A stretch of 64,000 nt of DNA from positions 64,020-128,019 of IMG/VR virus record IMGVR_UViG_3300042197_000820. One strand, 5' to 3'. This document shows, piece after piece, positions 18,509 through 64,000 of the stretch. The stretch comes from a virus. Position 1 is the first letter of the stretch; the number at the start of each line of letters is the position of its first letter. The notes under the pieces were generated by a model that was not told where the DNA came from, did no database searches, and saw nothing but the letters and a program-made list of their open reading frames with translations. The position numbers and the translations under genes were made by a program.

Positions 18509-18510
18509 TA

Positions 18511-40698: not shown

Positions 40699-41868
40699 CT
40701 AAATCTCCATAAATATTGTATTTATTTTATCCATAAATAAATCTGCATCTGCTTTAGATAACTTCAAGTTAGGTCTCAAGCGAATAGTTTTAGCAGAAGT
40801 TTTATTAGTTAGTATACCATGATTAAGCATTTTTGTAAAGAAAATATTTCTAGTTTTTTCATCCTCAAAATGCATAGACATTAGGAATCCGATATTTTGA
40901 AACTTGAAAGCTCCATTTGTAGAAATATTATTTTTGACATATTCAGACATTGTTGACACATTATCCATGATATTGTATGTATCGTAGGCTTTCATAATGT
41001 ATGTACACCTTACCATATCTAACAAATCTCCTGCCCAAGTTGGCTCCAACATATAGCTATTTACGAATATTTCTGAGTATTTTTCAGTTGCCATAATACC
41101 AGAAGTCTGTGTTTTTTTACCAAACACCACTATGTCGGGTATTATCTGTAATGTCTCAAAATACCACAACTTACCAGTAACTGCAAACCCTGTCTGGATC
41201 TCATCTAATATGAAAGGAATATCGTGGGTCTTGCATATTATATTGATTTTTCTTATGTATTCTGGATCCAGCAAGATATCTCCTGCCGAGCATTGTATTG
41301 GCTCCACCAAGATAGCAGTTATGTCATGATTATCAATAGCTGTCTTGATTGCCTGTGAACCATCCTCCATGTTTACTGTAATAACATGGCTAGCCGGGAA
41401 TGGCAGAACTCTATTAGAGAAGTGACTATCTCTAGAAGTGCAAAATCCACCATACCCGTTTATACCGTGAAAACTATTAGAAATACAAAGTATCTTGGGA
41501 TTTTTATGTTTTTTATATAGAATGGCTGTCTTTATTGCCGCTTCAATAGCGAGGGATCCTGTACAACAATAGTGGAAATATTTATAGTTCTTGTTTGTTC
41601 CAAACGAAGAGAATTTTTGATCAAATTCAATAGATTGTTCTGTTTGAAATTCACAATTACTAACTTTCCACTTTGATATGTCTCGCATTTGTTGTTCAAA
41701 CGATTCATCGAATACTGAATCATTATATCCGAGTGGTAGAGAAGAATACATACTAAAAAGATCCAGCATATATCTATTAGTATTTTTGTCAAATAAGTAG
41801 CTGCCTTTAGATCTCTGGAAGTCTACATTCACGTTCAACGAGCTATTATTGGTAATATTCTTAATCAT
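40699..41868 (-). CDS. Class III PLP aminotransferase (lysine 6-aminotransferase-like)
   Basis: LDLFSMYSSLPLGYN, TGSLAIEAAIK, SFHG, EPIQ, ILDEIQTG, FGKK (PLP Lys). Confidence 0.9.
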   Translation of the reverse strand: MIKNITNNSSLNVNVDFQRSKGSYLFDKNTNRYMLDLFSMYSSLPLGYNDSVFDESFEQQMRDISKWKVSNCEFQTEQSIEFDQKFSSFGTNKNYKYFHYCCTGSLAIEAAIKTAILYKKHKNPKILCISNSFHGINGYGGFCTSRDSHFSNRVLPFPASHVITVNMEDGSQAIKTAIDNHDITAILVEPIQCSAGDILLDPEYIRKINIICKTHDIPFILDEIQTGFAVTGKLWYFETLQIIPDIVVFGKKTQTSGIMATEKYSEIFVNSYMLEPTWAGDLLDMVRCTYIMKAYDTYNIMDNVSTMSEYVKNNISTNGAFKFQNIGFLMSMHFEDEKTRNIFFTKMLNHGILTNKTSAKTIRLRPNLKLSKADADLFMDKINTIFMEI

Positions 41869-42505
41869 AGTTAACCTTAACTAAAACACCATGTATCAAG
41901 GTTTCGTAATCGAGTGATATTTTAAGCTTATTTTCATGAAACATACTGATGATTTTTTCCTCATCCAAATCTGTAAAGTTATTCTCTACAGACTTCCTCT
42001 GCTTATTGCATGGCAGATGTATTAATGCTCTACCATCTTTCTTTAAAATTCTAGAAAAAGTGTGTATCAGTTTCTGTAGAACGTCCACTTCTGTCCTTAC
42101 CAGTGTATCAATAGAAAATATAAAATCTACTGTTTGATCTTGAATGTTTGGTAGCTCAAATCCATTAGTTAAATGAAAAGATATTTTATCATTCTTTAGT
42201 TTATTCTTAATATACTCTCCACTCTCTTCAAATATATCAGAACATATGACGTTTTTTGCAGATAGAAAATATTTTGTCCATTTACCCGCATAGCTTCCAT
42301 AATCAAGTATAACAGTATTCTCGTTAATATATCGTAGAACTAAATCATCTTTTATCTTTCTATAGTTTCCAAGATAGTTGTTGCAACTAGTTTTTGCTTC
42401 TACATCTTCTGGGTTCCCCCAGACATAACCTTCGTGGTCTAGGTTTTGTGAGATTCTATTAGCCCACTTGGTCTTTTGTTCTTCTACACTATGTCCTGTT
42501 GACAT
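41861..42505 (-). CDS. Class I SAM-dependent methyltransferase
   Basis: ILDYGSYAG, VDFIFSID, RILKKDG. Confidence 0.85.
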   Translation of the reverse strand: MSTGHSVEEQKTKWANRISQNLDHEGYVWGNPEDVEAKTSCNNYLGNYRKIKDDLVLRYINENTVILDYGSYAGKWTKYFLSAKNVICSDIFEESGEYIKNKLKNDKISFHLTNGFELPNIQDQTVDFIFSIDTLVRTEVDVLQKLIHTFSRILKKDGRALIHLPCNKQRKSVENNFTDLDEEKIISMFHENKLKISLDYETLIHGVLVKVNYD

Positions 42506-42893
42506 TCTGTACTTCCTCTAACGCACTATTCCAGTTAGTAAACTTGATTGCTTTGTCATCGATGTAACAAACAGCTCTTGGCTTCTCTGCTGTTACATCA
42601 GAGACAAACTTTTTCATATCATACTTTTCTAACCATTCCCAGACTAGTTCAGTACCAGTTTTACCGTTAATAAGCATCCTATCTTTTCTAGCCTTCGCAG
42701 TATAGACTATAATCTCAAACTCTTTGCTAATAGATTCTAGGGCCTCATATGCTCCGTCGATAGGTGTATCATAGATAGTACCATCGTAAAACCCTTTAGA
42801 GTTTTTATGAATCACACCATCAAAATCAATGGCTATCTGATAGGTTTCATCTGGGTAAGAGTGTTCTCTTATATTTTCTGGAGTATTATTCAA
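42489..42893 (-). CDS. HAD-superfamily phosphatase (capless)
   Basis: IAIDFDGVI, IVYTA, EKP..YIDDKA. Confidence 0.85.
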   Translation of the reverse strand: MNNTPENIREHSYPDETYQIAIDFDGVIHKNSKGFYDGTIYDTPIDGAYEALESISKEFEIIVYTAKARKDRMLINGKTGTELVWEWLEKYDMKKFVSDVTAEKPRAVCYIDDKAIKFTNWNSALEEVQNVNRT

Positions 42894-44029
42894 TTCCTAT
42901 GGTCTCCGTCTGGATATACATGAGGAACATCTTCTCTGCTAACGGCCAGCCTAACTGCCGGTTTATCACCTATAGCTGTTATCTTATGCACCTTGCCCTT
43001 CGGTATGAATACAATATCACCCTTTTTGATATTATGGGTGGCATTCTCCACTTCCCATTCCCACTCGCCATCGAGGATATACCACCATTCATTCCAATCT
43101 GGATGGAAATGTCTGCGGTTGCCTTCTCCCGGCATTTGTTGAATAACAGTTGCACTATTGTTTTCAGTATTTACGACTCTCTTACTCCAAGAGTTAGAAA
43201 CACCAAACTTGCTACGAATATCAGATATATTTACTTTAAGATGATTAGCATCATGTAAATCGTTTACAGAAACTCCATCTTTTACTAAGATATTGGGTAC
43301 ATCGGCTTCTGAGTGGTATTCGCCATAGAATTGTGGTTTATAGTTTCTGATACCTTCTAGGTTTCTAGCAACAAGATCGGCAATGATAAAATCTTCTTCG
43401 TGATGTATGTCAAGAGTTTCGATCCCGTCCACTTCGTAAAAACCTACATTTCCAATAAAAGTTCTTGGTTTTAAATCTTCACTTATATTAGTGAGTGCGC
43501 TAGTTCTCCACCCTGTTATGCCCCAACATACCTCTTGAACTGGCTTAAGTTTCTGAGACTGTGTGAATAGGTGATCAAAATCGAAGTTTACAGGACTATT
43601 ATCTTTTAGGATCATTTCCTGTTCCGTCTTAATAGATACAAGAGTGTCAAAGTTTGATTGGCACATCTCTGTGACAAACCCTTTGATTGTTTCAGGTTTT
43701 GTGAACGGAGATGTGGAATGTAACATAAAAATGTAATCTGACTCTACAGAAGAACAGAAATCATTAATAAAATGTTCATGCGTGATTGTGGGGTCACTTA
43801 AAGATTCCTCTCTCTTATAAAACTTAACTCCTAACTCTTCTGCAATAGAGCGAAATACATCTGACGATGAATTGATATATATTTCGTCAAATATGCCGCT
43901 CTGTTTAGCAGATTCTATTACATATGCCGGTAGTATTTTGTTGTTCAAAAGTCTTATATTCTTGTTCTTGCATCTTTGACTTCCTAGTCGTAGAGGTATA
44001 ACAGCAACTATTTTATTTCCATTTAACAT
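42890..44029 (-). CDS. CMP-ulosonate synthetase (NeuA/KdsB-like cytidylyltransferase) fused to a C-terminal cupin
   Basis: VIPLRLGSQRCKNKNI, HSTSPF, LDIHHEED; cupin HFHPDWNEWWYILDG...PKGKVH. Confidence 0.85.
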   Translation of the reverse strand: MLNGNKIVAVIPLRLGSQRCKNKNIRLLNNKILPAYVIESAKQSGIFDEIYINSSSDVFRSIAEELGVKFYKREESLSDPTITHEHFINDFCSSVESDYIFMLHSTSPFTKPETIKGFVTEMCQSNFDTLVSIKTEQEMILKDNSPVNFDFDHLFTQSQKLKPVQEVCWGITGWRTSALTNISEDLKPRTFIGNVGFYEVDGIETLDIHHEEDFIIADLVARNLEGIRNYKPQFYGEYHSEADVPNILVKDGVSVNDLHDANHLKVNISDIRSKFGVSNSWSKRVVNTENNSATVIQQMPGEGNRRHFHPDWNEWWYILDGEWEWEVENATHNIKKGDIVFIPKGKVHKITAIGDKPAVRLAVSREDVPHVYPDGDHRN

Positions 44030-44630
44030 AATTTATCAAGCTCCCGATTTTTTCTATTTCTACTTTAACTATATCTCCATCTTTCAGATGGATTTTTCTA
44101 CAACCTGCCGACGCTCCCGTGATGATTATATCATCTTCCTCAAGAGTAATATATTTACTAGCATAGCTTATGCATTTGTAAATATCATAGTATAAATCCG
44201 ACGTATTACAATCCTGTACTATGTTTCCGTTAACATAACTCGTAACTCTAAGATTAGTTACATCTGTATCAGGAGATATTAACGTGTCCCCTAGTGGTAG
44301 AAAGGTATCACAGCATTTTCCATAAGCTAAATCTTCAGACCTTTTAAGTATATTTGTACGATTGACATCGTTGCATATAGAGTAGCCTTTTATATGCTTA
44401 TGAGCTTCTTCATAAGTTACGTTATTAGTTCTTTTAGATATAACAACTGCTAGCTCCGACTCGGCCCATATATATTTGGTATCGGATGGAACAATAATAT
44501 CTGTTTCATTTCCAGTAATACAGTTATTACTTTTGATAAATAATACAGGAGTTCTTTTTCTTTTATTGAACATACAACGATGATTTCCACCAAATCCTAG
44601 GATGATATTTGGTTTTTTAATCGTAGTCAT
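44013..44630 (-). CDS. Fumarylacetoacetate hydrolase (FAH) family protein
   Basis: PVLFIKS, ESELAVVI, GYSICNDV, GKCCDTFLPLG, DIIITG, GDIVKVEIEKIGSLIN. Confidence 0.9.
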   Translation of the reverse strand: MTTIKKPNIILGFGGNHRCMFNKRKRTPVLFIKSNNCITGNETDIIVPSDTKYIWAESELAVVISKRTNNVTYEEAHKHIKGYSICNDVNRTNILKRSEDLAYGKCCDTFLPLGDTLISPDTDVTNLRVTSYVNGNIVQDCNTSDLYYDIYKCISYASKYITLEEDDIIITGASAGCRKIHLKDGDIVKVEIEKIGSLINYVKWK

Positions 44631-45370
44631 TGTATTAAATCCAGACTATTTTCATAACTTTCGAATCTGGGATCAGACAAAAAGATTCCTAACTGTCGAT
44701 CAACTGATATACGCTTATCTTGATTAAAAAGATTGTACTTAAAATGTCTAAACTGCTTGTCAGGATCGTGCTTGCTATTATGCCTAAACATCTGTATTAT
44801 ATCTTGTTTAGAAAATGTTTCGTATCCTGTCTGATACAAAGATCTATAAAAATCAATACCTGTTATGTATAACTCTGCTAAATCTGAACTTAGCAAGTCG
44901 CAGATCGCAACCATTCCAGAGTTCAAATGACACCCAATATTATGTTTTGTGCTGTAATATGGTTCATTTGGTATAAGTCTGACGTTAACATTACTGTTAT
45001 TAAGTGTATCATGTACGTTATGTGCTACCGATGCATTATAAAAGTCTTCTGACTCTGGGTAAGTTGTTGAAACAAACTTGATCTTGTTTTGTTCCCAAAG
45101 TCGGTAATCAACCTCTAGCTTACCAGTTCTCGGATGACTTGCGTTGATATATCCGGTAGAAAAACAAGCATATAGTATATCTGTTCTATTACCGATATAT
45201 TCCTCTTGTCCCTCAAGATGTGACACTGCACGATTCAGCCTGACAACTACATCGTAACTATCAATGCAATCGCCATTCTTCTCTTTGAGGACCGTATCCG
45301 AGGGACCAACCAGAACAACTCGCTTACCAGCTAAATATTTCTTGTAGTCTTCTTCATGAACTATCGGCAT
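44627..45370 (-). CDS. GT29-like (sialyltransferase-like) glycosyltransferase
   Basis: VVLVGPS...IDSYDVVVRLN...IGNRTD (sialylmotif L-like), NSGMVAI...LYITGIDFY (motif S-like), and a downstream His. Confidence 0.7.
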   Translation of the reverse strand: MPIVHEEDYKKYLAGKRVVLVGPSDTVLKEKNGDCIDSYDVVVRLNRAVSHLEGQEEYIGNRTDILYACFSTGYINASHPRTGKLEVDYRLWEQNKIKFVSTTYPESEDFYNASVAHNVHDTLNNSNVNVRLIPNEPYYSTKHNIGCHLNSGMVAICDLLSSDLAELYITGIDFYRSLYQTGYETFSKQDIIQMFRHNSKHDPDKQFRHFKYNLFNQDKRISVDRQLGIFLSDPRFESYENSLDLIQ

Positions 45371-46155
45371 ATTACATCACTCCAATAAGACATCTTAAGT
45401 TTACTCATATTATATCTTATATTAATCATCTTGTCGTACTCTGTCAATAAAAAATCTTCTGTTACTTGTTCCCAAGAATCGATCAACAATATGGGTAAAT
45501 CAGAAAACTCATTCATATGTATGCTTTTCAGTACTATAGGGATTGACCTTAAATATAAAGATTCCCAAGTCCTATGGCAGTCTACACCATTTCCTCTGGG
45601 AGATATAACAAACTTATGGCGTGAGATGTCGTTATAATATTCCTTCCAATCAAGATTACTTTTGAACGTGACCCAGCTTTTATCTCTAAATAAGTCGATC
45701 ACTAGATTTCTCTCGGATCGATATGTTGTTGGGTTGATGTTCAAATATACAAGCTTATCGTGTTCTTGTTTCTGTGCAGACAGTTCAATAATATATTCTT
45801 TTTTGGAAAATCCATTTTGTGGTAAAGTAGAATATCTTCCAAACTGGCTCTGAGCGTTGAAAACCGGTTCAAAGTTTTCTAGTCCAATAGGCAAAGAAAT
45901 GAGATTATCATTATTAAAATCTTTATTTTGACAAAACCAAGTCCTTGCCCTAGGACCAAAATCATATACTTCTTTAGTTATATGATAATCACTATTATGA
46001 GTTATAAAAGTGTCTACTATTTTTCCTTTGTATTCAGGAATATAATCAGTCTTACAAAATACTATATTGTCTGTGTTCGATTCATTAATGAATCTATTAC
46101 CACATATGTAGTCGTCTTCATCGACCTCATAGTTTAACAAACTTTCTTCTAGCAT
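45361..46155 (-). CDS. Exostosin/GT47-like glycosyltransferase
   Basis: HKFVISPRGNGVDCHRTWESLYLRSIPIV; likely start is ATG 46155. Confidence 0.7.
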   Translation of the reverse strand: MLEESLLNYEVDEDDYICGNRFINESNTDNIVFCKTDYIPEYKGKIVDTFITHNSDYHITKEVYDFGPRARTWFCQNKDFNNDNLISLPIGLENFEPVFNAQSQFGRYSTLPQNGFSKKEYIIELSAQKQEHDKLVYLNINPTTYRSERNLVIDLFRDKSWVTFKSNLDWKEYYNDISRHKFVISPRGNGVDCHRTWESLYLRSIPIVLKSIHMNEFSDLPILLIDSWEQVTEDFLLTEYDKMINIRYNMSKLKMSYWSDVICR

Positions 46156-46913
46156 TTGGAGGCTAAAATGTCCTCTACTAGTTTGTCTATCTGGTTCTTG
46201 TATTGTGAATATGGACGAATAGAGTGACAATCATAAAACTCGTTTCTGTCAAGCATAGATGTATCATAAACGAAGTTACTTCTGTCTAGTCTATGTCCGT
46301 ATCTACCGCCATCTCTTTCAATAAATTTAATATTATTATAGCCAATATTGATTTTTTGAAGTATCTTGTTAGTTGCATACTGTTCGTCAGCAAACCAACT
46401 AGTTTTACCTGTTAGGTGACCACCGGGATCAGAACCCAGATTACTTGAATGTACTTGCCAAGCTGACATTTCCCAATCTAATGGAAGATCTAATACATCC
46501 GTAAATACAGAACCTTTGGCTATATGATAACAGGAGGGGAACTTCTTATATTCCCCAATAGAGGGATCCAAGTGAACATAACTGTTATCTTCAATAGAAC
46601 TTACTCTATCTAAAAAGTATTCCCTAGAAATAGGAAACATATCAATGTCTGATATAGCCCAAGTCGTTTCTGGCTCAGTTGAGGGATGAAAATATCTAAC
46701 CCATAAAGTCTGCAAGTATACTGGTACTCCTTCCACTGGTTTGTACTTGTACACTTCACCGTATTCTGTCGTTGGTTCATATTCTGAGTCTGACACATAC
46801 AGTAATACGGGGGTAATACCAAACTTTTCCTTCCATACTCTTGACACAAGTGGCCAGAAATCTAAATAAAATGGATTGTCGTCACTTGAAACTATAGCTT
46901 TATCTATTTTCAT
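46149..46913 (-). CDS. Putative glycosyltransferase (GT-A-like, DxD)
   Basis: YLDFWP, ISDIDMFP, PSCYH, WFADE; located within the glycan cluster. Confidence 0.45.
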   Translation of the reverse strand: MKIDKAIVSSDDNPFYLDFWPLVSRVWKEKFGITPVLLYVSDSEYEPTTEYGEVYKYKPVEGVPVYLQTLWVRYFHPSTEPETTWAISDIDMFPISREYFLDRVSSIEDNSYVHLDPSIGEYKKFPSCYHIAKGSVFTDVLDLPLDWEMSAWQVHSSNLGSDPGGHLTGKTSWFADEQYATNKILQKINIGYNNIKFIERDGGRYGHRLDRSNFVYDTSMLDRNEFYDCHSIRPYSQYKNQIDKLVEDILASKC

Positions 46914-47767
46914 TTGATGTCCTCGTCTTTTATATGGCTCGTAGCAGAAGAGCTTCTACTCCAGTCCCAATCTTCTCTTACCATCTTATTATATTCCCAG
47001 ATATTTGTCAAGAATTTAGTATTTATTTGTTTTTGATTCAAAACATGTATTAAAGAGTTAATATCTTTAGGAAAACAGGTACCTCCGAATCCTCTCTGTC
47101 CATCTGGTCCGGGTACCTTGGTATGAGAACGACCAATCCTTTCATCTGTGCATACGCCTTCAACTACATTCTCATATTCACATTCAAATGCTTGGCATGT
47201 ATCATATACTAAGTTGAAATAAGAAACTTTCATTGCAAGAAACGTATTAGCAAAATATTTAATCATTTCAGATTCTTTACTTTTAACAACCTGTGTTTTA
47301 GAAAATGGTTGTATAGATTCAAAGAACTCTATTAGGTTACTGTCTATTTGCAAGATATCAGAACCAATAATATTTCTGGTTGACTTAGCGAAATCTTCTA
47401 CGGCGTTAGCTGCTGTAAGAAACTCGGGATTATGTATTATCTTTAAGTCCTTCCTTTTCTCTTGCAGCCTGCTTGTAGTACCGATTGGAACTGTTGATTT
47501 AATAGCTATAATACAATCTACACCAAGTGGAATATTTTCAAAAAAATACTCCAAAATACTCAGATCGCACTCAGCACCCTCGGCTGTCTTCATAGGTGTT
47601 GGAAGACATATGAAAACTAGATCACAATCCCAGATTTGTTCTAGGCTATGCGTGCTTTTCTCTGGTGTGGTGTCGTATACTAAAGTCTCATATTTTGTTG
47701 AAACCGACTGTCTTACAGCATTACCGACAAACCCATTTCCTACAATCCCAATCTTACTTATTGTCAT
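46910..47767 (-). CDS. ugd: UDP-glucose/GDP-mannose 6-dehydrogenase (short form lacking the C-terminal domain)
   Basis: GNGFVG, ICLPTP, IKSTVPIG, HNPEFL, EMIKY, GFGGTCFPKD (catalytic Cys). Confidence 0.9.
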   Translation of the reverse strand: MTISKIGIVGNGFVGNAVRQSVSTKYETLVYDTTPEKSTHSLEQIWDCDLVFICLPTPMKTAEGAECDLSILEYFFENIPLGVDCIIAIKSTVPIGTTSRLQEKRKDLKIIHNPEFLTAANAVEDFAKSTRNIIGSDILQIDSNLIEFFESIQPFSKTQVVKSKESEMIKYFANTFLAMKVSYFNLVYDTCQAFECEYENVVEGVCTDERIGRSHTKVPGPDGQRGFGGTCFPKDINSLIHVLNQKQINTKFLTNIWEYNKMVREDWDWSRSSSATSHIKDEDIK

Positions 47768-48653
47768 TTATCCACTCCTCTAATCTAACGGTTGGCTCCC
47801 ACCCAAGCAAAGTAGAAATTTTAGTAATATTGGCTTTAGTAATACGTGATTCTCCGATCCTGGCGGGTATGTGTTCGTGTCCACCTCCGATCATTTGTAC
47901 TAACTCCAAAACACTGTGATTCATGCCAGTTCCCACATTCAAAACTTGTCCAAGGATATCAGGATTTTCAGATGTTGCCGCAAGTATATTAGCTCTCACT
48001 ACATCTCTAACGTGTGTGAAGTCTCTTCTCTGTAAACCATCTCCAACAACAGTCATATTTTTACCTTCTCTTGCTTGTTTAATAAACAAACCAATAACTG
48101 GTGCATATTGACCTCTTGTTGGATGCCGTTCACCATATACATTGAAATATCTGAATATTACCGTCTCCAGATTGAATAGATTATAATACATCTTACAAAG
48201 ATATTCACCCGAAACTTTTGATACTGAGTACGGGTTTAGGCAATCATCCGGCATGTCTTCTCGTAGAGGCGGCTCGTTTTTTAGTCCATAGGCAGAACTA
48301 GTAGATGAGTATACAACTCTTTTAACTCCTGTCTCTCTTGCAGCTTGGAGTACATTGCATGTACCAAGCACATTTGTCATAACTGCTTTAGAAGGATCCA
48401 ATATAGCTGGTTGGATTCTGGCTTCTGCGGCTAAATGGAAGACATATTCGACATTCTCCATAACTCTTTTAAGACTTTGAAAATCGCATATGTCTATCTT
48501 ATGATTTTCCGCTCTATCGTTCCAATAGAAACTTTCGTGAGCATCGGAAGATTCATTGTCTACCACAACAACATGATACCCTTGCTGGATCAACTCGTCT
48601 ACCAAGTTAGAGCCAATGAATCCGGCCCCACCGGTTACTAATACTTTCTTCAT
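47754..48653 (-). CDS. NAD-dependent nucleotide-sugar epimerase/dehydratase (GalE/WbpP-like SDR)
   Basis: TGGAGFIGS, HLAA, SSTSSAYG, YSVSK, RYFNVYG, GDGLQRRDF. Confidence 0.92.
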   Translation of the reverse strand: MKKVLVTGGAGFIGSNLVDELIQQGYHVVVVDNESSDAHESFYWNDRAENHKIDICDFQSLKRVMENVEYVFHLAAEARIQPAILDPSKAVMTNVLGTCNVLQAARETGVKRVVYSSTSSAYGLKNEPPLREDMPDDCLNPYSVSKVSGEYLCKMYYNLFNLETVIFRYFNVYGERHPTRGQYAPVIGLFIKQAREGKNMTVVGDGLQRRDFTHVRDVVRANILAATSENPDILGQVLNVGTGMNHSVLELVQMIGGGHEHIPARIGESRITKANITKISTLLGWEPTVRLEEWINDNK

Positions 48654-49453
48654 TTCGTTTGTTCCTGTAAAAATCTAAAATATCCAAATTTTGATTCTCT
48701 TGGCATCAAAACCCTTTCTGGTGTAGTGGTTTTAAGTTCTAAATGAGGGTCAAACACCTTAAATGTTTGCCAATCTCCATATTTATTAGCTCTATCTAAA
48801 TCAAATCTTTGGTGCTTATCATACTTGTGAATCATTATCGAAAATATCGATTGGTCACATCGATGCTGTATACATTTGCCATCAATACCATCTGGTTTAT
48901 CTACACCGACATTTGGTAGAAGTGCATCCGGTGTTTTGGAATAGTAGTACATTTCTTCTATCATATTACGATTAGACTGATCGATCTGATATACCTGAAA
49001 TCCGGCCCAATATTGTGGCATGATCTCCGATCCCTCTGAACCATCAATAGTACTAAAACACTTTTTAGTAGTCCAATATTGATTACTTAGAATTTCTTGT
49101 GGATATGGCAAGAATAAGGAGCCTTCTTCTAAATCATTTTCAATATTATTAGCAGAAGAAACAAAGCAATTTGCTGAGTCTGAGTAGATGAACTTGTCAC
49201 TTCTACTCACAACGTCATTCAGAGCATATGTCTTATAAAAAAATGCTCCCGGTTCATAAGCGTATTCGGTGATTTCAGGAATCCTTATTAGATTAACATT
49301 TTTTAGTTGCCTAAAATAATCTAACTCTATTTCGCTTATCTGGCCAAAATGGTAAAGATAGATATTCTGATCGTATGAATGAAACTTATAACTTCTTAAA
49401 AGATTTAAAGCATTTTTAGCAAACTTGCCATTAAAAACAGTTACTAAATCCAT
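48650..49453 (-). CDS. DUF1647-like putative glycosyltransferase
   Basis: FFYK, YSDSA, WAGF, HRCDQSIFS. Confidence 0.55.
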   Translation of the reverse strand: MDLVTVFNGKFAKNALNLLRSYKFHSYDQNIYLYHFGQISEIELDYFRQLKNVNLIRIPEITEYAYEPGAFFYKTYALNDVVSRSDKFIYSDSANCFVSSANNIENDLEEGSLFLPYPQEILSNQYWTTKKCFSTIDGSEGSEIMPQYWAGFQVYQIDQSNRNMIEEMYYYSKTPDALLPNVGVDKPDGIDGKCIQHRCDQSIFSIMIHKYDKHQRFDLDRANKYGDWQTFKVFDPHLELKTTTPERVLMPRESKFGYFRFLQEQTK

Positions 49454-56966: not shown

Positions 56967-57781
56967 CAGATTTTCACTTGAGGTGCTTGTGGGTTAGCAT
57001 TTAGCTCTGATTCGAAACGATCAAAGTAGAGCATCAAGTTCTTAAGTAGATAAGTTTTGAACACAGAGCGTTCTGAGACACCACCATCTTTGACAAGTTC
57101 TGGATATGCTTGCGATAGCTCAGGTACTTTGTCGGTGGAAACACGGCTGTCTGGATCAATCTTCTTAAACATATCAGCAATCTGCTTCGATACAGAGTTC
57201 ATTGTTTCCATTGCTTGCTGACGACCTGTAGTGTCTAATCCCTTATCATTCAGACCTAGGTTTTGTGAAAACTCTTCTTCTGGTGATAACTCAGGCTCTG
57301 CCTCTTCGGGTTCTTCTTCAGGTTCGATTTCGATGAAACCTTCAGGTGGTGGATCATCATCACCAAGATCGATATTGATCTCTTCTTCTAGTTCTCCTTC
57401 TGAACTTACTGTATCACTTTGCTCACCGGGACTAGCTGACTCGGTGTCCATGATATCCTCTACGGAAGCAAGAACATGAGCCTTGTAAGAATCTCTTTGC
57501 TTAATATCTGTCGTTAAAGACTTGTAAGCTGACTGAACAACTGGTACAATATTACGAAGCAAGTCACGAAGGAAGTTCATAGCTGTAATATCAAGCGGAG
57601 CATCGGGTGAAGCCGAGCCTGTCTTAGCCTCAAGTTGTAAAGATTTTGTCTTGATCACTTGACCAAGGATGTGAATCTCCTTATTATTAGATTGTAATCC
57701 TTCAGTGATCTTCTTCTTTAGAAATCCTCTGATAGCTTTTCTAAGCATTTGTTCTTCTAGTATTTCTTGTCTGCTGATCAT
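56966..57781 (-). CDS. Acidic hypothetical protein, candidate internal head protein
   Basis: 271 aa with multiple L/I-x-E sites (ILEE, ITE, LEE) and an acidic low-complexity centre. Confidence 0.6.
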   Translation of the reverse strand: MISRQEILEEQMLRKAIRGFLKKKITEGLQSNNKEIHILGQVIKTKSLQLEAKTGSASPDAPLDITAMNFLRDLLRNIVPVVQSAYKSLTTDIKQRDSYKAHVLASVEDIMDTESASPGEQSDTVSSEGELEEEINIDLGDDDPPPEGFIEIEPEEEPEEAEPELSPEEEFSQNLGLNDKGLDTTGRQQAMETMNSVSKQIADMFKKIDPDSRVSTDKVPELSQAYPELVKDGGVSERSVFKTYLLKNLMLYFDRFESELNANPQAPQVKI

Positions 57782-57806
57782 GTAGTGATTCCTTATTATT
57801 GACTAT

Positions 57807-57814
57807 ATAAATAG
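57807..57814 (-). promoter_or_regulatory. Putative phage promoter motif CTATTTAT
   Basis: Intergenic, 26 nt upstream of ATG 57781. Confidence 0.6.
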
Positions 57815-57821
57815 TTTTATA

Positions 57822-59876
57822 TTATTTCTTTTTTGGTAGTGATTTTTTAGGTTTTGATTTAGTAGTGGTTAATGGTTCTGAAAAACCACCAACTGATCCA
57901 ACCATAGCTGACATTTCATCTAGTATTTCTATATCTTCTTCGACCTCTTTAGATTCTCTAGATACTTCAGCCAGAATGTCTTCGAACATTTGGTTCATAA
58001 CTTCAGCTATTTCACTTGGCATCATTATGTTATAAACCATTCTTCTGTCATCTTCTTCTAAGAAATCAGGTAAGTAAGCAACTAGTTGTTCTTCCTTATC
58101 TTCTCTACTCAGATTTGTATCTGCTATTATAGCTCTCAGTTGTTTAGCTGAGATCTCGCCTTGTGGACCAGTGATAGCAGGAATAACGACAGCCTCTAGT
58201 GATTCTAGAGTTGGATTCTTTTCCAAGAAAGGAGCAGCATTCAACTTAGCAAATCTATCAGCATCCTTTGAAGATACTGCAAAATACAGTTTTGCTCTTG
58301 GACTAAACTGTTCTTTTTCAGCATAAGTAAACGCCGCTGTTAAAGGACTTGGAAGCTCAGATCCAATCGCCATTGCTCTATCAGCTAGACCAGCGGCAGC
58401 AATGTAAATATTGAATATCTCAGCAGCTTTCGCAGCATTCAGGTTCATTCTGACAGAAGCTGCGCTCTTCGGATCCGAAACAAATACAAGTACTTTATCA
58501 AACTTCTTTGCTAGATATTCTACAACTGCCATGTGACCTTTATGTGGTGGTTTGAAAGATCCAGCGAATACACCAACAGTTTGAGTTGAACCATCGGTCT
58601 CTGGTATTATTTCGATTGATTCGTTCTCATCTAGTTTTTGTAGTGGTGGTACATTGCCGCGACCATACTTGAATAGACCAAGTAGCTGATTCATGGGGGC
58701 AAAGTTACCAGTGAACTTATAGCTGTGTCCATCATAAGCAAACACGAATCCTTCGGCAGCGGTACTGATATTCTCGACAGACTTTAGTTTCTCCATCTGC
58801 TTCTTAAGGATTTCCATTGCTTCTTCGTTGTCTGATGACTCGATAGCATCTACGGCTTTTGATACTTCACCACGAAGTCTCTCAACTTCCTTCTTGTTAT
58901 CAAGAACGAATGCTGATTCTAGTGTTTTTAGCATTTCTACCGAGAAGTCATGAACAACTTCTTCGATTGGTCTAATCAGGGCTGACATGATGATTGGAGC
59001 TTTCCCAATAAACTCCTTGACTGTTTGCGCTTCTTCTTTGCTAAGCCCATCAGTCACTTGTTTGATTGACACACCCTTGACATTTAGGATACGCTTGATC
59101 AAAGCAGCTTTTTTATCTTCTGGCAAAGCTGGCAATCTCTTATCGATTGTCAGACCAAGACGAACCACGATATAATCACCTATAGTCTCATTGTCAGAAA
59201 CGCCGTATTCGTTCATAACAGCCTCTAGGCGGTCGATAGCTGATTGGAGAACAGTCTTATCATCCAGAGCCTTTAGACGCCTTATAGCATCAAATGCGAC
59301 TCCGTACTCTGACTTCTTTTCGTCTTGCACACGTTCCAAAGCTTTCTCTAGTTTGACAGCATTGTCGGTAACATCACGATCTGTTTTGTTTCCGGTTTCT
59401 CGGTCGAACTCTGCACCACCAAGGCGGTGGATTGACAAAGTTTTGATATCATAGTTGATAACATTTGCAGTACGAGGATCTTGGATTTCACAGTTATAAT
59501 AGATGTTAGTGTCTGGACCAAAGATCTCGATTTGTTCTTCTTCTGAAAACATACTAACTGCTTCTTCGAAAGCAGATAGAGCTTCAGAGAATGTAAACTC
59601 CAAAGCTCCACGACCACCAAACTTCTGAGCTAGTTGAGAGGCATCAAGACCACCATCTTTGACATTTCCTTTGTTACGCGCACCTTTGGCTTTGCCGGTT
59701 TTTACGTCATAAGAAATAAATAAGTTTTGACCATCAGTTTTCTCGGTTCCTTCCAACTCGCCATTTGCGGCCTTGGTAAAGACATCTTTGATTTGAGAAA
59801 ATGATAAGCCATAGTTATCATAAAGGTGGCTCATGTGTCCAGCGACACCGCCTTCTAATAAAAGCTCAGAAGTCAT
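57822..59876 (-). CDS. Fusion of an ATP-dependent ligase-superfamily (RNA-ligase-like) domain and an HxGH nucleotidyltransferase domain
   Basis: Likely start is ATG 59876 after GAGGA. GHMSH; TEKTDGQN (motif I KxDG), AEGFVF (motif IV), YKFTG (motif V); second domain FAGSFKPPHKGH...ISAKQLR. Confidence 0.7.
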   Translation of the reverse strand: MTSELLLEGGVAGHMSHLYDNYGLSFSQIKDVFTKAANGELEGTEKTDGQNLFISYDVKTGKAKGARNKGNVKDGGLDASQLAQKFGGRGALEFTFSEALSAFEEAVSMFSEEEQIEIFGPDTNIYYNCEIQDPRTANVINYDIKTLSIHRLGGAEFDRETGNKTDRDVTDNAVKLEKALERVQDEKKSEYGVAFDAIRRLKALDDKTVLQSAIDRLEAVMNEYGVSDNETIGDYIVVRLGLTIDKRLPALPEDKKAALIKRILNVKGVSIKQVTDGLSKEEAQTVKEFIGKAPIIMSALIRPIEEVVHDFSVEMLKTLESAFVLDNKKEVERLRGEVSKAVDAIESSDNEEAMEILKKQMEKLKSVENISTAAEGFVFAYDGHSYKFTGNFAPMNQLLGLFKYGRGNVPPLQKLDENESIEIIPETDGSTQTVGVFAGSFKPPHKGHMAVVEYLAKKFDKVLVFVSDPKSAASVRMNLNAAKAAEIFNIYIAAAGLADRAMAIGSELPSPLTAAFTYAEKEQFSPRAKLYFAVSSKDADRFAKLNAAPFLEKNPTLESLEAVVIPAITGPQGEISAKQLRAIIADTNLSREDKEEQLVAYLPDFLEEDDRRMVYNIMMPSEIAEVMNQMFEDILAEVSRESKEVEEDIEILDEMSAMVGSVGGFSEPLTTTKSKPKKSLPKKK

Positions 59877-59884
59877 GTGAATCC

Positions 59885-60088
59885 TCACTTAGCTTTGACA
59901 GCTTTGGTTACTTTAGCTACTGGTTTAGCAGCAACTGGTTCTTCTACTTCGACAACAGGAACTGGTTCTTCTGCTACAACTGGTTGTTCTACAACAACTT
60001 CTGGAGCAGGAGCAGCAACTGGTGCTACCACTTCTTCGCTTCTGGCGGCTAATCCGGCCAAAAACATCCTTCTTTTCTTTCGTCCCAT
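59885..60088 (-). CDS. Small Ala/Val/Pro/Glu-rich protein with a basic N-terminus
   Basis: AAGGAG RBS and promoter motif upstream; MGRKKRR start. Confidence 0.65.
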   Translation of the reverse strand: MGRKKRRMFLAGLAARSEEVVAPVAAPAPEVVVEQPVVAEEPVPVVEVEEPVAAKPVAKVTKAVKAK

Positions 60089-60103
60089 AATAAACTCCTT
60101 TAG

Positions 60104-60111
60104 ATAAATAG
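60104..60111 (-). promoter_or_regulatory. Putative phage promoter motif CTATTTAT
   Basis: Intergenic, 16 nt upstream of ATG 60088. Confidence 0.6.
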
Positions 60112-60114
60112 TGG

Positions 60115-61716
60115 TCAGCCGGTCGAGGTTACCGAACCTGTTGTTGACCTTCCTCTCAAACTTAGAACACCGGGAGTTCCCAAGAAGAAAGGTACCTGCT
60201 CAGCGTTTCTGTCGTATTGGTTAGATTTTGAGTATGTATTAATATTGTAGTTAGCACTATAAGACACACTACCTAAACTCTGTGTGTAAGCATAAGCACC
60301 CGTTGGAATAGGGTCTGGTACATAGGAATCAATCCTATACATATAAAACTTACTAGGAATATCAATGTAAACTTTATTTCCACTACCTGTTACATAATCC
60401 CTAGCGCAGATTGTTAAAGTATCGTTGTCCGAAGCACTAACAATAGTGTTCAAAGTATAGTTAATCGGATCAGTGACAGCACCAACACCTGTCCTTCCTT
60501 GGTAAACTACCGTTCCATCAGTACAGTTGGTACATCCTCTTCTAATCTGGAACTGTACACCCGCATCAGAAGAAACGTTGGAGTTATATACTTTAATATC
60601 ATAAGATAAATGGTACAGACCTCCACTTGGGATAGTAATCAAACCAGAACCCGAGTTAAATGTTAGTTCTACGACGGAATCAGGTTCATCAGTTCCATCC
60701 ATGAAAGAATATGCTAGAAGATTTGAACTTGCAGTCGTTGAAATAAAACTTGAAGTAGAAGCATTAAAAGAAATAGCCATCATGGCATTTCTAGGGACTT
60801 TGACAATACTGAAAGTCGTTCCCTGCTTTGCAGTAAATCCTGTTGCACCATTGGTATCAGTCGTTAGTTGTATACCAATGGGTGCTGGTACCATAACTCC
60901 ATCAACAGTAGAAAGATTGACGAATGTTCTTTGATCAACGGCAGTTGCAGTATCTAGATATAGAGTTCTTTCCGCAATAGAAAAGCCACCACCGGGAAAT
61001 GAACCAACATTAATGCTCTCAGTCATCCAGTTGTCGCCAGATGTTGCATCATCGATTATATTGGTGTGCAACATGTAATAGGAACCAGTATTCTGGAGTG
61101 TGAAGGTTCCGTTTACTAGATTCGGTTCAATAGTTATCGTGGAAGAACCAGTGATGTAATCAGTACCGCTGGAGCCTGAAAAATACGATACTACTGCTCC
61201 GGTCAAAGCTGTAGTAGTAGTTTGTCTAGTACTATAGGCATAATCAGATTCTATCTTTCTTATAATAAGATTAGAGCCGCTAAGAAAAGAGTTAGTACCA
61301 GCAGTAGTAGTGGATGTTATTTTTATTCCATCATTAGCAGACATACTGACTAATGTATGGAAAGTCCTTTCAGCGCCAAAAGCATAATCACCGTAATCGT
61401 ATCTAGCAGCACCGGTATAAAATACTATATTATTCTTGTATATTTTAATAGTTCTGGTATAGTCTGTGGTTCCCGGTGTAACTAGAGATTCACCACGACC
61501 CCAAATAGAGTTGAGAATAATCTGATAAATACCGCCTTGGGAAGCTGTAAAAGTACCACCACTAGTATCATAAGTTATCGAAGAACTTAAAACATTATAT
61601 CCAAATCCATTTGTACTATAAGAGGAAGAAGCAAAAATATTTGTTTCCGAAGCTCCAAAGTTATTAGACTCAGACAGTGAGGTTATGCTTATGAATGGTG
61701 GTATAGAAATAGCCAT
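60115..61716 (-). CDS. Virion surface protein with three tandem C1q/BclA-CTD-like domains
   Basis: Repeats GTFTASQGGIYQI / GTFTLQNTGSYYM / GLITIPSGGLYHL at about 150-aa spacing; Ser/Thr/Gly-rich. Confidence 0.65.
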   Translation of the reverse strand: MAISIPPFISITSLSESNNFGASETNIFASSSYSTNGFGYNVLSSSITYDTSGGTFTASQGGIYQIILNSIWGRGESLVTPGTTDYTRTIKIYKNNIVFYTGAARYDYGDYAFGAERTFHTLVSMSANDGIKITSTTTAGTNSFLSGSNLIIRKIESDYAYSTRQTTTTALTGAVVSYFSGSSGTDYITGSSTITIEPNLVNGTFTLQNTGSYYMLHTNIIDDATSGDNWMTESINVGSFPGGGFSIAERTLYLDTATAVDQRTFVNLSTVDGVMVPAPIGIQLTTDTNGATGFTAKQGTTFSIVKVPRNAMMAISFNASTSSFISTTASSNLLAYSFMDGTDEPDSVVELTFNSGSGLITIPSGGLYHLSYDIKVYNSNVSSDAGVQFQIRRGCTNCTDGTVVYQGRTGVGAVTDPINYTLNTIVSASDNDTLTICARDYVTGSGNKVYIDIPSKFYMYRIDSYVPDPIPTGAYAYTQSLGSVSYSANYNINTYSKSNQYDRNAEQVPFFLGTPGVLSLRGRSTTGSVTSTG

Positions 61717-61719
61717 TAT

Positions 61720-62616
61720 TTAAATGTGATCCTTGGAATCGTGTATTGTTTTTTTAAACAATTTTAAATACCTTTTCATTAGTACTATAAAATCGTCGCC
61801 AGCTTCCTTCATCATCTTTATGTACTTTTCTTTCTCTGGTAAATTATTTCTAGATGCAATAGCTTCTGGTTCACTAGCAAAATTTAAGTAATTTAATATT
61901 TTTTTATAAGATCGATTAGAAGGTATCTTTGATAAAAAATCTGTTTTAAGTTTATTCATATCTATCTCCATATCTTGTGGATAGATTTTGTGATAAAGAT
62001 ATGCATATTGTTTAGCGTGAGCAGATACTTCTCCACTTTTAGTAAGATATAATATTATATCTATTATTGTATTGTCTTCTAATTTCCCTCCAAAATCTAC
62101 TATGTGTTGTAATTCATGTTGTATAGTTGATAGTAATGGAATTATATGTTCGCTACCATCTCTAATCAGATCCCACCCTATTTCCAATGAAATAATCTTT
62201 TTTTGTTGTTCTCCCGGCCATTGCATTGTTTCTAAACCTGCCTCATCTCGTTGCCCATTAAATTTCAATTCAAACGTATTATCTAAATTTGGTAAAAGTT
62301 TTTTAATTTCTTCTGGTACTGGAAGTGTTATGGCATAACCTTTTAGAATTGCATCATGAGGAAAAGAAATGGAATTATTTTTTTGAAATTTTAAAAGCTC
62401 TGATTTATCCATATCTTTATGAATTTTTAAAGACTCAATAAGTTGAGTTATAATACTTTTTATAATTAAATATAATTTTTTAATACCCATATTTTGTTCT
62501 GGGGTTAATTCGCTCACAACCTCTTTTAACTTCCTTTTAGATGTTGGAACGAACTTCTCCATAAGCATATTGTATACTTGTTCTCCCCGCCAGTTCTGGT
62601 AGTCTAGCTTAGGCAT
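61720..62616 (-). CDS. HExxH zinc-metalloprotein-like cargo behind a 32-aa leader
   Basis: TIQHELQH...YLTKSGEVSAH; AT-rich body. Confidence 0.6.
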   Translation of the reverse strand: MPKLDYQNWRGEQVYNMLMEKFVPTSKRKLKEVVSELTPEQNMGIKKLYLIIKSIITQLIESLKIHKDMDKSELLKFQKNNSISFPHDAILKGYAITLPVPEEIKKLLPNLDNTFELKFNGQRDEAGLETMQWPGEQQKKIISLEIGWDLIRDGSEHIIPLLSTIQHELQHIVDFGGKLEDNTIIDIILYLTKSGEVSAHAKQYAYLYHKIYPQDMEIDMNKLKTDFLSKIPSNRSYKKILNYLNFASEPEAIASRNNLPEKEKYIKMMKEAGDDFIVLMKRYLKLFKKTIHDSKDHI

Positions 62617-62622
62617 TTTAGT

Positions 62623-63342
62623 TTATTTCTTACCTTTTTTAGAAGCATTATGTTTGGCTTGTGCAATCACATCGCGTCTGGTAACATCATTTAACGGTGG
62701 GGTATTATTTGCAAGATCTTTATCATCAAGATTCTCTTCTTCGGTTTTTTCGTCTTCTTCTGATTCTTCGACTTCCTCGACAAGTCTTTTCTTGCTAGCT
62801 GAAACAAAACGCTCCATAAGCATTCCGAAGATTTCTTCGTTTTTCCATTCATTTAATGATTTCATTGGATTCTCCTGTAATGTTTGAGGTTCTACACTTG
62901 ATTGCAAGTACTTTTTCATGCTATCGGGGTCTTCTTTGTAAAGATCTTCCCATTTTCTGAAGCACATGTTGCCTTTTTCGTAAGCTTCACGTTCCATTTC
63001 GTTCATGTGAGCGTCTTTCTGGGCGTATCCTTCTTCGGTTGACTCAAAGCCGGTCAAATCACCACGACAAGCTTGCAAATGATGCACAAGTTCATGCGAA
63101 ATCGATCTCATAATGTCTTTTGGGTGTCTTCCGTATGTAAAAACGGAAACAATCATCTTTTCTGGGTCGTAAAAAGCTGTTTTTCCGAGGATTTCTGCCT
63201 TGTCTAGCTCACGATCAAGCAGTTTTATGACAGGATCCTTATCGAATCCAAGTTCTTCCTTTGCAAAAGGCAAAAACATTCTCAAAAGCTTGATCATGCC
63301 TCTGAACTTGTTCGGAGAATAGTTGTAAATCTTAAAACCCAT
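62623..63342 (-). CDS. HExxH zinc-metallopeptidase-like protein with a probable in-frame internal start at 62865
   Basis: Likely start is ATG 63342 after GGAG. DIMRSISHELVHHLQ...MEREAY. Internal AGGAG lies just upstream of ATG 62865. Confidence 0.7.
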   Translation of the reverse strand: MGFKIYNYSPNKFRGMIKLLRMFLPFAKEELGFDKDPVIKLLDRELDKAEILGKTAFYDPEKMIVSVFTYGRHPKDIMRSISHELVHHLQACRGDLTGFESTEEGYAQKDAHMNEMEREAYEKGNMCFRKWEDLYKEDPDSMKKYLQSSVEPQTLQENPMKSLNEWKNEEIFGMLMERFVSASKKRLVEEVEESEEDEKTEEENLDDKDLANNTPPLNDVTRRDVIAQAKHNASKKGKK

Positions 63343-63366
63343 TCGAAAAATCTCCAAAATACCTGT

Positions 63367-63374
63367 ATAACTAG
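63367..63374 (-). promoter_or_regulatory. Putative phage promoter motif CTAGTTAT
   Basis: 25 nt upstream of ATG 63342; overlaps the upstream TAG stop. Confidence 0.5.
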
Positions 63375-63574
63375 TTTTCGTCTTCTACTTTATGTAGTAT
63401 TGCGAGAAGAATCTGCTTGTATTCTTGAGTTTCGACGCAATAGACCTTAGCGATCAAGACTTCTCGACCGCCTTTTAGCTCTTTTTTGATTTCGTGGATG
63501 ATTCCAACCGTTCTTTTCTTTATTTTCTTGAGATCAGTCCACCACACTAGATCTCCGATCTGGAAATCCTTCAT
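63371..63574 (-). CDS. Small SH3/KOW-like beta-barrel protein
   Basis: MKDFQIGDLVWW...VGIIHEI; the start is uncertain (63574 or 63604). Confidence 0.5.
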   Translation of the reverse strand: MKDFQIGDLVWWTDLKKIKKRTVGIIHEIKKELKGGREVLIAKVYCVETQEYKQILLAILHKVEDEN

Positions 63575-63587
63575 TTTTCCGAATGTT

Positions 63588-63950
63588 TTATGGAGTGCCT
63601 TCATCGGTTTTCTTAGCATGTATGGCCGAAATGGTAGATCTGGCATAATCTACTTGGCTCTGTATCCTTTCTAATACATCAGTAAGTAGAAAGTCAACAT
63701 CTTCTGGAGCTAGATTATTGCTATCCATGTCGGCTCTGACACGTTTTAGAAAGTTATCCACCATATCGTGCATAGCTGTGACTAGAGCTTCATAGGGTTG
63801 GTGTTTATAAGAAGTAGATGAGTAGGCTGCTGGAACTTCCCCAGACTTATAAACGTTTTCTTTTAGCTTTTCGGTACTCTCTGCGATTCTCTGTTGTCCT
63901 TCACCGGGGAAAGATAACAAGATTTCTTTATAGTTCTTAGCGTTTATCAT
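63588..63950 (-). CDS. Hypothetical protein
   Basis: 120 aa; ATGA overlap with the upstream ORF; contains IAE and LKE sites. Confidence 0.65.
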   Translation of the reverse strand: MINAKNYKEILLSFPGEGQQRIAESTEKLKENVYKSGEVPAAYSSTSYKHQPYEALVTAMHDMVDNFLKRVRADMDSNNLAPEDVDFLLTDVLERIQSQVDYARSTISAIHAKKTDEGTP

Positions 63951-64000
63951 CGTAAATCCCCAGCGTTAGGAGTCAATGGTACTTCACCATTGTTTTGATC
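63947..64000 (-). CDS. C-terminal end of a CDS running in from the right edge
   Basis: Open frame DQNNGEVPLTPNAGDLR* whose TGA overlaps the ATG at 63950. Confidence 0.45.
   Translation of the reverse strand, partial: DQNNGEVPLTPNAGDLR

Follow-up and report, generated by a model that had tools for sequence, protein, structure and literature searches.

The window analysed here is a stretch of 64,000 nucleotides (nt) covering positions 64020-128019 of a 128-kb linear IMG/VR virus record (IMGVR_UViG_3300042197_000820, here G000; the window being G000:C1:64020-128019), which CheckV estimated to be 70% complete. Two adjacent genes near its end share a leader peptide of 30 to 32 residues, hereafter the W-type leader. 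On balance, and judging from sequence, this leader probably acts as a capsid-loading tag which is cut off by a gp21-type protease and is carried by two neighbouring units, each composed of a leader and a cargo. The anatomy of these units, a nested start signal, a mosaic history, leader swapping on the cargo family and L/I-x-E sites at conserved positions are directly supported; targeting, cleavage and injection are the parts which the tag reading would add to them. In the following, G000 and G001 designate virus records and L-numbers the contigs or loci compared. All long open reading frames (ORFs) of the window lie on the minus strand, and the features concerned are:

62623..63342, minus strand: gene for a putative small zincin (HELVH and downstream Glu), with a domain at about residues 1-150, a disordered linker, a leader-like module and an acidic tail
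62872..62876, minus strand: Shine-Dalgarno (SD) sequence AGGAG, 6 nt 5' of the internal ATG (62865-62863)
62623..62865, minus strand: nested in-frame ORF of 80 amino acids (aa), leader-like module and acidic tail, with the internal ATG at 62865 as predicted start
62776..62865, minus strand: W-type leader module, copy 1, MKSLNEWKNEEIFGMLMERFVSASKKRLVE, with LME and LVE sites
62521..62616, minus strand: W-type leader module, copy 2, the N-terminal 32 residues of the 298-aa protein, MPKLDYQNWRGEQVYNMLMEKFVPTSKRKLKE, with LME and LKE sites
61720..62520, minus strand: AT-rich foreign cargo, an alpha/beta domain with QHELQH and a conserved GEVxAHAKQxAY, modelled with a predicted local distance difference test score (pLDDT) of ~90
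61720..62740, minus strand: apparently recently transferred block (end of the upstream tail, spacer, leader and cargo), 93-100% identical per 60-nt bin to L008

The source of the record is an uncultured T4-like myovirus. It encodes a Peptidase_S77 (gp21-type) prohead protease (PF03420, 105.6 bits, G000 47134-47568, the homologue itself spanning G000 47047-47655; also matching PHROG 207, E 2.5e-54), a Gp23-type capsid protein and a portal protein (PHROG match), and further a baseplate wedge protein, PhoH and a block of sugar-nucleotide and glycosyltransferase genes.

An original prediction, made from the window's letters, had described a leader common to the two adjacent genes, and BLASTP bore this out: residues 9-30 of the 298-aa protein (61720..62616, minus strand) aligned with residues 171-192 of the 244-aa protein (62623..63357, minus strand) with 11/22 identities, 18/22 positives and E=3e-6. 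The 12-nt string said to be shared, CTCCATAAGCAT, was located at 62557 and 62812 and had no third occurrence in the genome. Both leaders close on L-x-E, as had also been noted: in the 298-aa protein this is LKE at residues 30-32, in the upstream copy LVE at residues 28-30 when the internal Met is taken as residue 1, and each copy displays a further LME site 12 residues before. Used as a query against the 128-kb record, the leader was found in two places only, the two neighbouring genes; a motif profile run over all six frames of G000 returned the same two places (E 3e-13 and 1e-10), followed by a next match at E 1.3. The many N-terminal matches anticipated from such a scan did not appear in G000. 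It had been conceded beforehand that the motif might be confined to these two genes as a simple local duplication. It is indeed confined to two places in G000, but the DNA of the two copies is identical at only 48/96 positions, with 13/32 third codon positions matching, and a recent local duplication is therefore not the explanation. The copies are an old pair, which their sequences indicate is held similar at the protein level; 11/22 identical residues against 13/32 third positions point to purifying selection on the leader peptide.

The upstream gene likely starts at the ATG at 63342 (MGFKIYNY), where its homologues begin. Its family is large, with 1367 clusters at E<=0.01 and a relative encoded in 530 viral-contig stretches, and residues H83, E84, H87, H88 and E117 are invariant. 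AlphaFold2 (AF2) gave a confident N-terminal domain, disorder at residues 151-160 and an isolated helix at 163-179. The best Foldseek rows for the domain were weak (Wss1, E 8e-3, prob 0.98, TM 0.50; AQ_1354, E 1e-2), and the model is consistent with a small zincin of weakly Wss1/YbeY-like fold. Nothing above cut-off was found for the 244-aa protein in Pfam or PHROGs. When it was compared by tblastn with cultured phages, it matched only Flavobacterium phage immuto (4 records). In vB_FspM_immuto_2-6A (L007 3381-6104) the zincin is fused behind a nucleotidyltransferase/NMNAT-like region in a 907-aa protein, in which HEIEH forms a second HExxH further on; three genes downstream in the window, there is a gene for a 688-aa protein that has a cytidylyltransferase-like domain.

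Behind the linker, the module follows the consensus M-S-x-K-[DE]-W-K-N-x-E-L-x-x-L-L-x-E-x-W-G-F and continues into a hypervariable, mostly acidic tail. It opens with a Met at about residue 150 in 103/120 family proteins among the matches listed. This internal segment had been credited with an SD sequence of its own, and AGGAG at 62876-62872 and ATG at 62865-62863 can be read directly from the sequence. GGAG, GAGG or AGGA occurred at -16..-5 of the module Met in 45/45 non-identical family loci, versus 1500/15393 (9.7%) of all codons of the same genes and 23/457 (5.0%) of other in-frame Met codons; the internal SD was also present in L006, L008 and L009. AGGAG was retained whether it was read as K-G-E, K-G-A, E-R-R or Q-E, and selection therefore appears to act on the nucleotides. 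Members without the regex motif had an SD-preceded Met at the same place in 17/24 cases, and many of them open a different peptide there (Q-type, M..QLR..IR..I.E). Three out of four short forms have a stop of the zincin, after which the module opens a separate ORF (L243, L201 and L242, the latter by eye), and in L194, L215 and L232 the zincin bears a LysM-type tail and the module with its tail forms a free-standing gene elsewhere in the locus. A module profile searched over 1.84 billion representatives gave 443 matches at E<=0.001. Of the best 150 of these 443, 73 begin with the module and have no zincin, 56 carry it behind a zincin, 18 hold it internally without visible HExxHH (probably truncated) and three lie outside the regex. 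Because of the conserved Met and SD, the split forms and the free-standing forms, the upstream copy is best taken as opening a 'leader + acidic tail' gene, either nested or fused, the product of which is predicted. The earlier description thus stood as far as the SD is concerned, which is real and conserved, while the segment itself turned out to be the probable start of such a gene and no accidental internal stretch.

In the AF2 model of the 298-aa protein, residues 1-35 displayed pLDDT <50, with a lone helix at 9-22, and the body a pLDDT of ~90, so modelled as a flexible leader extension before a confidently folded cargo. With H167, E168, H171 and E196 invariant, the cargo is a putative zinc metallopeptidase of no recognised family. 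The protein had nothing above cut-off in Pfam or PHROGs; its cargo fold had no Foldseek match in the PDB at E<=0.001, and the best row of a VIA wide search (Z 5.2) covered helical segments only. Homology of the cargo with the upstream zincin was considered and dropped (hhalign probability 16% over 36 columns), and so was homology with the second HExxH region of the immuto fusion (1.7% over 17 columns). Relatives of the whole protein were limited to four protein clusters, to which a scan of JGI metagenomes added 14 loci. The orthologue in L009 is identical at 29/34 leader positions versus 116/238 positions of the cargo (residues 61-298).

The cargo body is compositionally foreign. AATT was observed 57 times in G000 against 1028 expected from base composition and 721 from a second-order Markov model (ratio 0.08), that is, ~12- to 18-fold under-represented, and no other 4-mer palindrome had a ratio <0.67. 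The counts given originally, 18 AATT in the body and none in the leader, were reproduced (body 61720-62520, with sites at 61760..62507; leader 62521-62616), with the remark that the genome itself holds its 57 sites and that zero AATT in a 96-nt leader is not significant alone (0.6 expected). Guanine-plus-cytosine content (GC) was 0.41 in the leader versus 0.28 in the body, GC at third codon positions was 0.53 versus 0.18, and the ratio of C- to T-ending codons was 5:1 up to codon 34 and 10:64 from codon 35 to codon 298 (Fisher p=7e-4). The expected composition break at ~62520 was accordingly recovered as a shift of codon usage at about codon 35, where GC falls from 0.41 to 0.28. The genome's lowest-GC (0.276) and most AATT-rich (17) 800-nt segments both fall on the 298-aa gene. 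AATT avoidance was shared by L006 (0 sites in 8.6 kb vs 65 expected) and was lacking in L008-L010, L008 displaying 117 sites in 11 kb. This pattern suggests that AATT is the target of a host restriction activity which acts on only part of the phage clade.

L006 is the closest relative of the window: per 60-nt bin, identity amounts to 90-100% in the stretch 64000-63100 and to 83-100% in 60340-59000. L006 does not have the 298-aa gene: the flanking genes are 9 nt apart with nothing between them. Homology to L006 ends at 62799, the 3' edge of the module, the DNA of which (62860-62801) is 90-93% identical in all four relatives compared. L008 has the same gene with the same 18 AATT sites, and its near-identity to the window spans the end of the tail, the spacer, the leader and the body, which therefore all entered together. 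From these comparisons the 298-aa gene appears to be a very recent import from a related phage without AATT avoidance. The diverged block is bounded on one side by the conserved leader module and ends on the other at, or close to, the conserved 5' end of the following gene. The junction at ~62520 had been proposed as the edge along which a domain was captured under the leader; the latest transfer, however, brought the leader, the spacer and the end of the upstream gene as well, and the composition junction (~62515), being already present in L008, is older than that transfer, as far as the compared sequences indicate. The AATT contrast provides a rare internal clock, the import being so recent that 0/18 AATT sites have been lost.

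The sugar-nucleotide/glycosyltransferase block (window 41612-49168) holds 15/27 of the window AATT sites outside the 298-aa gene, which may be further recent imports. The 533-aa gene downstream (window 60115-61716), with a weak C1q-domain match, is a mosaic as well: identity to L006 is 83-95% per 60-nt bin over the last ~240 nt, and the remainder is ~80% identical to L008 and ~55-65% to L006, yet without AATT.

From ELTPEQN on, more distant homologues of the cargo have the body in common, including the invariant HExxH and GE..AH.KQ.AY, and the cargo family displayed five different N-termini. Homologues in L012, L015, L016, L017 and L021 start with MKLLLENWRKYLNE, the one in L011 with MIKLKDILNE, those in L013 and L014 with MLNFYEFYMLME and the one in L018 with MMLIMERFDRFINEE. 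Neighbouring unrelated genes begin with the same or a similar peptide in every one of these contigs except L012 and L018.

The 14-residue leader MKLLLENWRKYLNE, considered here as canonical, was searched for with the degenerate pattern M-K-x-L-x-E-N-W-R-x-[FY]-L and was found in at least 151 IMG/VR stretches; the matches listed, together with the metagenome loci, comprised 175 distinct proteins. An in-frame stop lay <=15 codons upstream in 145/175 of these, and Glu was at position 14 ([LI]-x-E at 12-14) in 159/175, a position not fixed by the pattern; in several of the remaining leaders L/I-x-E was moved by one residue. Synonymous codons vary freely in this leader, Arg9 using six codons. Complete canonical-leader cargos among the matches listed numbered 93 and fell into 61 BLASTP clusters, for which 60/61 representatives were scanned against Pfam. 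Eight of these 60 matched at E<=1e-4 (Zeta_toxin/AAA kinase, AAA_33, NUDIX, PGDYG, tRNA_lig_CPD, Pkinase and Transglut_core3, the last two below the curated cut-off). Four out of five large canonical-leader records encoded gp21, including 3/3 complete ones, and the canonical leader was present in 9, 4 and 3 copies in the three complete genomes, where a reversed control pattern gave 0. The zincin family was encoded once in 4/5 such records, and 2-3 kb from leader genes in the three complete genomes. In G001, a 203-kb complete record, five neighbouring leader genes (17813-21554) share identical first 24 nt, which suggests duplication or gene conversion at the leader.

G000 has a single canonical-type leader, at the start of a 189-aa gene beginning with MMASMKLIMENWTKFVVSE (61444-60875, 2.6 kb before the window start); the canonical-leader profile gave one weak match in this record (E 0.22), which was confirmed by the pattern. 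Three further proteins of G000 (48410-47826, 13614-13075 and 59423-58884) begin with MKLT.AQLK.II.EEV or similar, with [ILM]-x-E at 12-14. One of these genes sits directly upstream of the prohead protease gene, and one of the cargos weakly matches PHROG families of a DNA-binding protein and a starvation-inducible transcriptional regulator. The pattern of this second leader type was encountered in at least 144 IMG/VR stretches, which hold as many as 5 copies within 2.7 kb. G000 is thus shared by two W-type copies (one of them nested), one canonical-type gene and three second-type genes.

Candidate cleavage sites were counted from the internal Met in 44 distinct modules of the zincin family. The Glu of [LI]-x-E was at +17 in 36/44 modules and at +28, +30 or +31 in 34/44; at least one site was present in 40/44, against a per-position background of 0.029 for the tails and 0.006 for the zincin domain.

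Taken together, these results are most readily accommodated by the following scheme. In the upstream unit, translation from the ATG at 62865, preceded by AGGAG, would give an in-frame product in which a helical leader of 30 residues is followed by a hypervariable acidic tail; this stretch doubles as the C-terminal part of the full-length zincin, which is encoded by a conserved single-copy gene. In the downstream unit, a diverged 32-residue copy of the leader would precede an AT-rich HExxH domain of foreign origin, and the unit would have been acquired whole, very recently, when the genome recombined with that of a related phage which does not avoid AATT. The W-type leader would be this lineage's long version of short N-terminal propeptides heading many unrelated proteins of T4-like phages. 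By binding the prohead core it would have the protein enclosed in the head; the gp21-type protease would then cut off the leader behind L/I-x-E (in this case LME together with LKE or LVE), and at infection the cargo would exit with the DNA.

Several observations weigh against this scheme. The W-type leader is present just twice in 128 kb, and the exact leader was found on no other cargo, 2/2 matches in a word index of 5.8 billion proteins being orthologues (163-522 aa). The W-type module precedes almost only the acidic tails of one family, is internal within the full-length zincin and, with its 30-32 residues, is longer than the T4 capsid targeting sequence. L/I-x-E is a short motif, which 8/44 modules do not have at +17 and which 4/44 have at neither site. 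The pair of leader genes lies outside the head module, the S77 protease being a separate gene ~79 kb off, and the proximity of zincin and canonical leader is modest (21/80 loci; 0.30 per 5 kb vs 0.08-0.22 genome-wide). The T4 late-promoter word is TATAAATA, which had 7 matches versus 7.9 expected and none close to the locus; neither this word nor scans for sigma-70 promoters and terminators gave a timing signal there. The leaders were detected on no cultured phage; the phage record collection returned no DNA match to window 57000-64000 and no tblastn match to the 298-aa protein. Regarding the reusable tag announced by the original prediction, leaders of this class do head many unrelated cargos in relatives; the exact leader is absent from other cargos and the long module stands mostly before acidic tails, so that 'reusable' fits the leader class and not its W-type version.

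The shared peptide could also be a recombination scar, i.e. a conserved crossover stretch translated by chance and devoid of a targeting role. This would agree with module DNA that is 90-93% identical among four otherwise diverged relatives, with the end of L006 homology exactly at the 3' edge of the module (62799), and with a W-type leader that has two copies only in the genome and sits on a single cargo family. A scar is nevertheless unlikely, as the copies are 50% identical in DNA with saturated third positions and yet encode a conserved peptide, comparison of the window with L009 shows less divergence in the leader than in the cargo (29/34 vs 116/238 identical), and the internal start and the positions of the L/I-x-E sites are conserved as well; crossover role and tag role are, moreover, mutually compatible. 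Both window proteins possess an intact HExxH-plus-Glu with the module adjoining each domain, and the zincin, encoded once in 4/5 leader-bearing records, is separated from leader genes by 2-3 kb in the three complete genomes, which would also suit a module belonging to the metallopeptidases, either as a pro-segment or latency helix or as the recognition site of a leader-removing zincin. This explanation appears unlikely: 73 of the best 150 of 443 profile matches consist of leader and acidic tail without zincin, homologues of the cargo bear unrelated leaders, AF2 leaves the helix undocked in both proteins (at low confidence), and homology between the two HExxH domains could not be demonstrated (hhalign 16%).

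A leader directing its cargo elsewhere, to a phage or host partner, a membrane or an assembly other than the prohead, would leave the same signature of a portable tag on many unrelated cargos in relatives, and genes located outside the head module are in line with such a destination. It appears unlikely in view of the fixed L/I-x-E end, which fits the gp21 specificity given in PMC9026906, of the presence of gp21 in the genomes tested, and of the second leader type, which replaces the W-type in the zincin family and also heads the gene directly upstream of the protease gene of G000. A capsid-loading tag removed by the gp21-type protease accordingly remains the favoured reading.

The proposed tag and the nested start have known counterparts. 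Lambda C/Nu3 are in-frame nested head genes, and the loci of internal proteins in T-even phages are reportedly polymorphic (Repoila et al., 1994), with leader-coding DNA flanking the exchanged genes. As at those loci, a conserved leader-coding stretch lies here at the boundary of exchanged segments, next to a gene that only some of the close relatives possess; unlike there, the latest exchange carried the leader along with the cargo, and the right-hand edge is the conserved start of the next gene instead of a second leader. Internal proteins IPI-III and Alt of T4 carry a capsid targeting sequence which is removed by the gp21 prohead protease (Mullaney and Black 1996, via PMC9026906; PMC3012670). 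According to PMC9026906, gp21 cleaves after L/I-X-E, capsid targeting sequences are propeptides of 10-19 residues, redundant sites occur in propeptides of related giant phages, and an internal start yields a short gp21 in T4; PMC3012670 describes the capsid targeting sequence as the sole conserved part of diverse T-even internal proteins. In the literature searched, no paper on the leader peptides of the present loci was found, and a query combining 'capsid targeting sequence' with marine phages or cyanophages gave no paper with the phrase among the matches listed. The leaders considered here resemble that sequence in being candidate N-terminal propeptides common, most clearly so in relatives of this phage, to otherwise unrelated, fast-changing proteins, in their L/I-x-E end, in the gp21 homologue of the genome and in the exchange of cargo genes between relatives. 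They differ from it by a length of 30-32 residues with two candidate sites versus 10-19 in T4, by one copy opening a nested gene inside the zincin gene, and by acidic tails where T4 internal proteins were described as basic. The conserved internal SD and ATG predict, as in lambda C/Nu3 and the short gp21 of T4, a shorter product sharing the C-terminus of the enzyme; unlike in these systems, the enzyme is a small zincin and not a serine prohead protease, the gene lies outside the head module and the second product is predicted.

A much broader picture can be drawn, which is rather unlikely to hold in full. Marine T4-like phages would practise modular cargo loading with interchangeable leaders (W-type, MKLLLENWRKYLNE type and MKLT.AQLK.II.EE type). 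The conserved, single-copy zincin would form part of this system, with a leader and acidic tail nested in its gene, so that the enzyme and a separately made partner share one address, like lambda C/Nu3; a metalloprotease and a fast-evolving acidic protein would be placed in the head for delivery, and the 298-aa gene would be a foreign enzyme just captured by the local leader. If the leaders are capsid-loading tags, uncultured aquatic T4-like phages deliver far more, and more varied, proteins than the three or four of T4. The cargos seen include kinase/zeta-toxin-like, NUDIX and 2H-phosphoesterase-like proteins as well as metallopeptidases, and it would become possible to recognise proteins delivered with the DNA by their sequence only. 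For a family of more than 1300 clusters, the conserved nested start makes a concrete prediction.

Elsewhere in the window, very large ORFs of 2999 and 2139 aa (9509-18508 and 22220-28639) adjoin baseplate-like genes.

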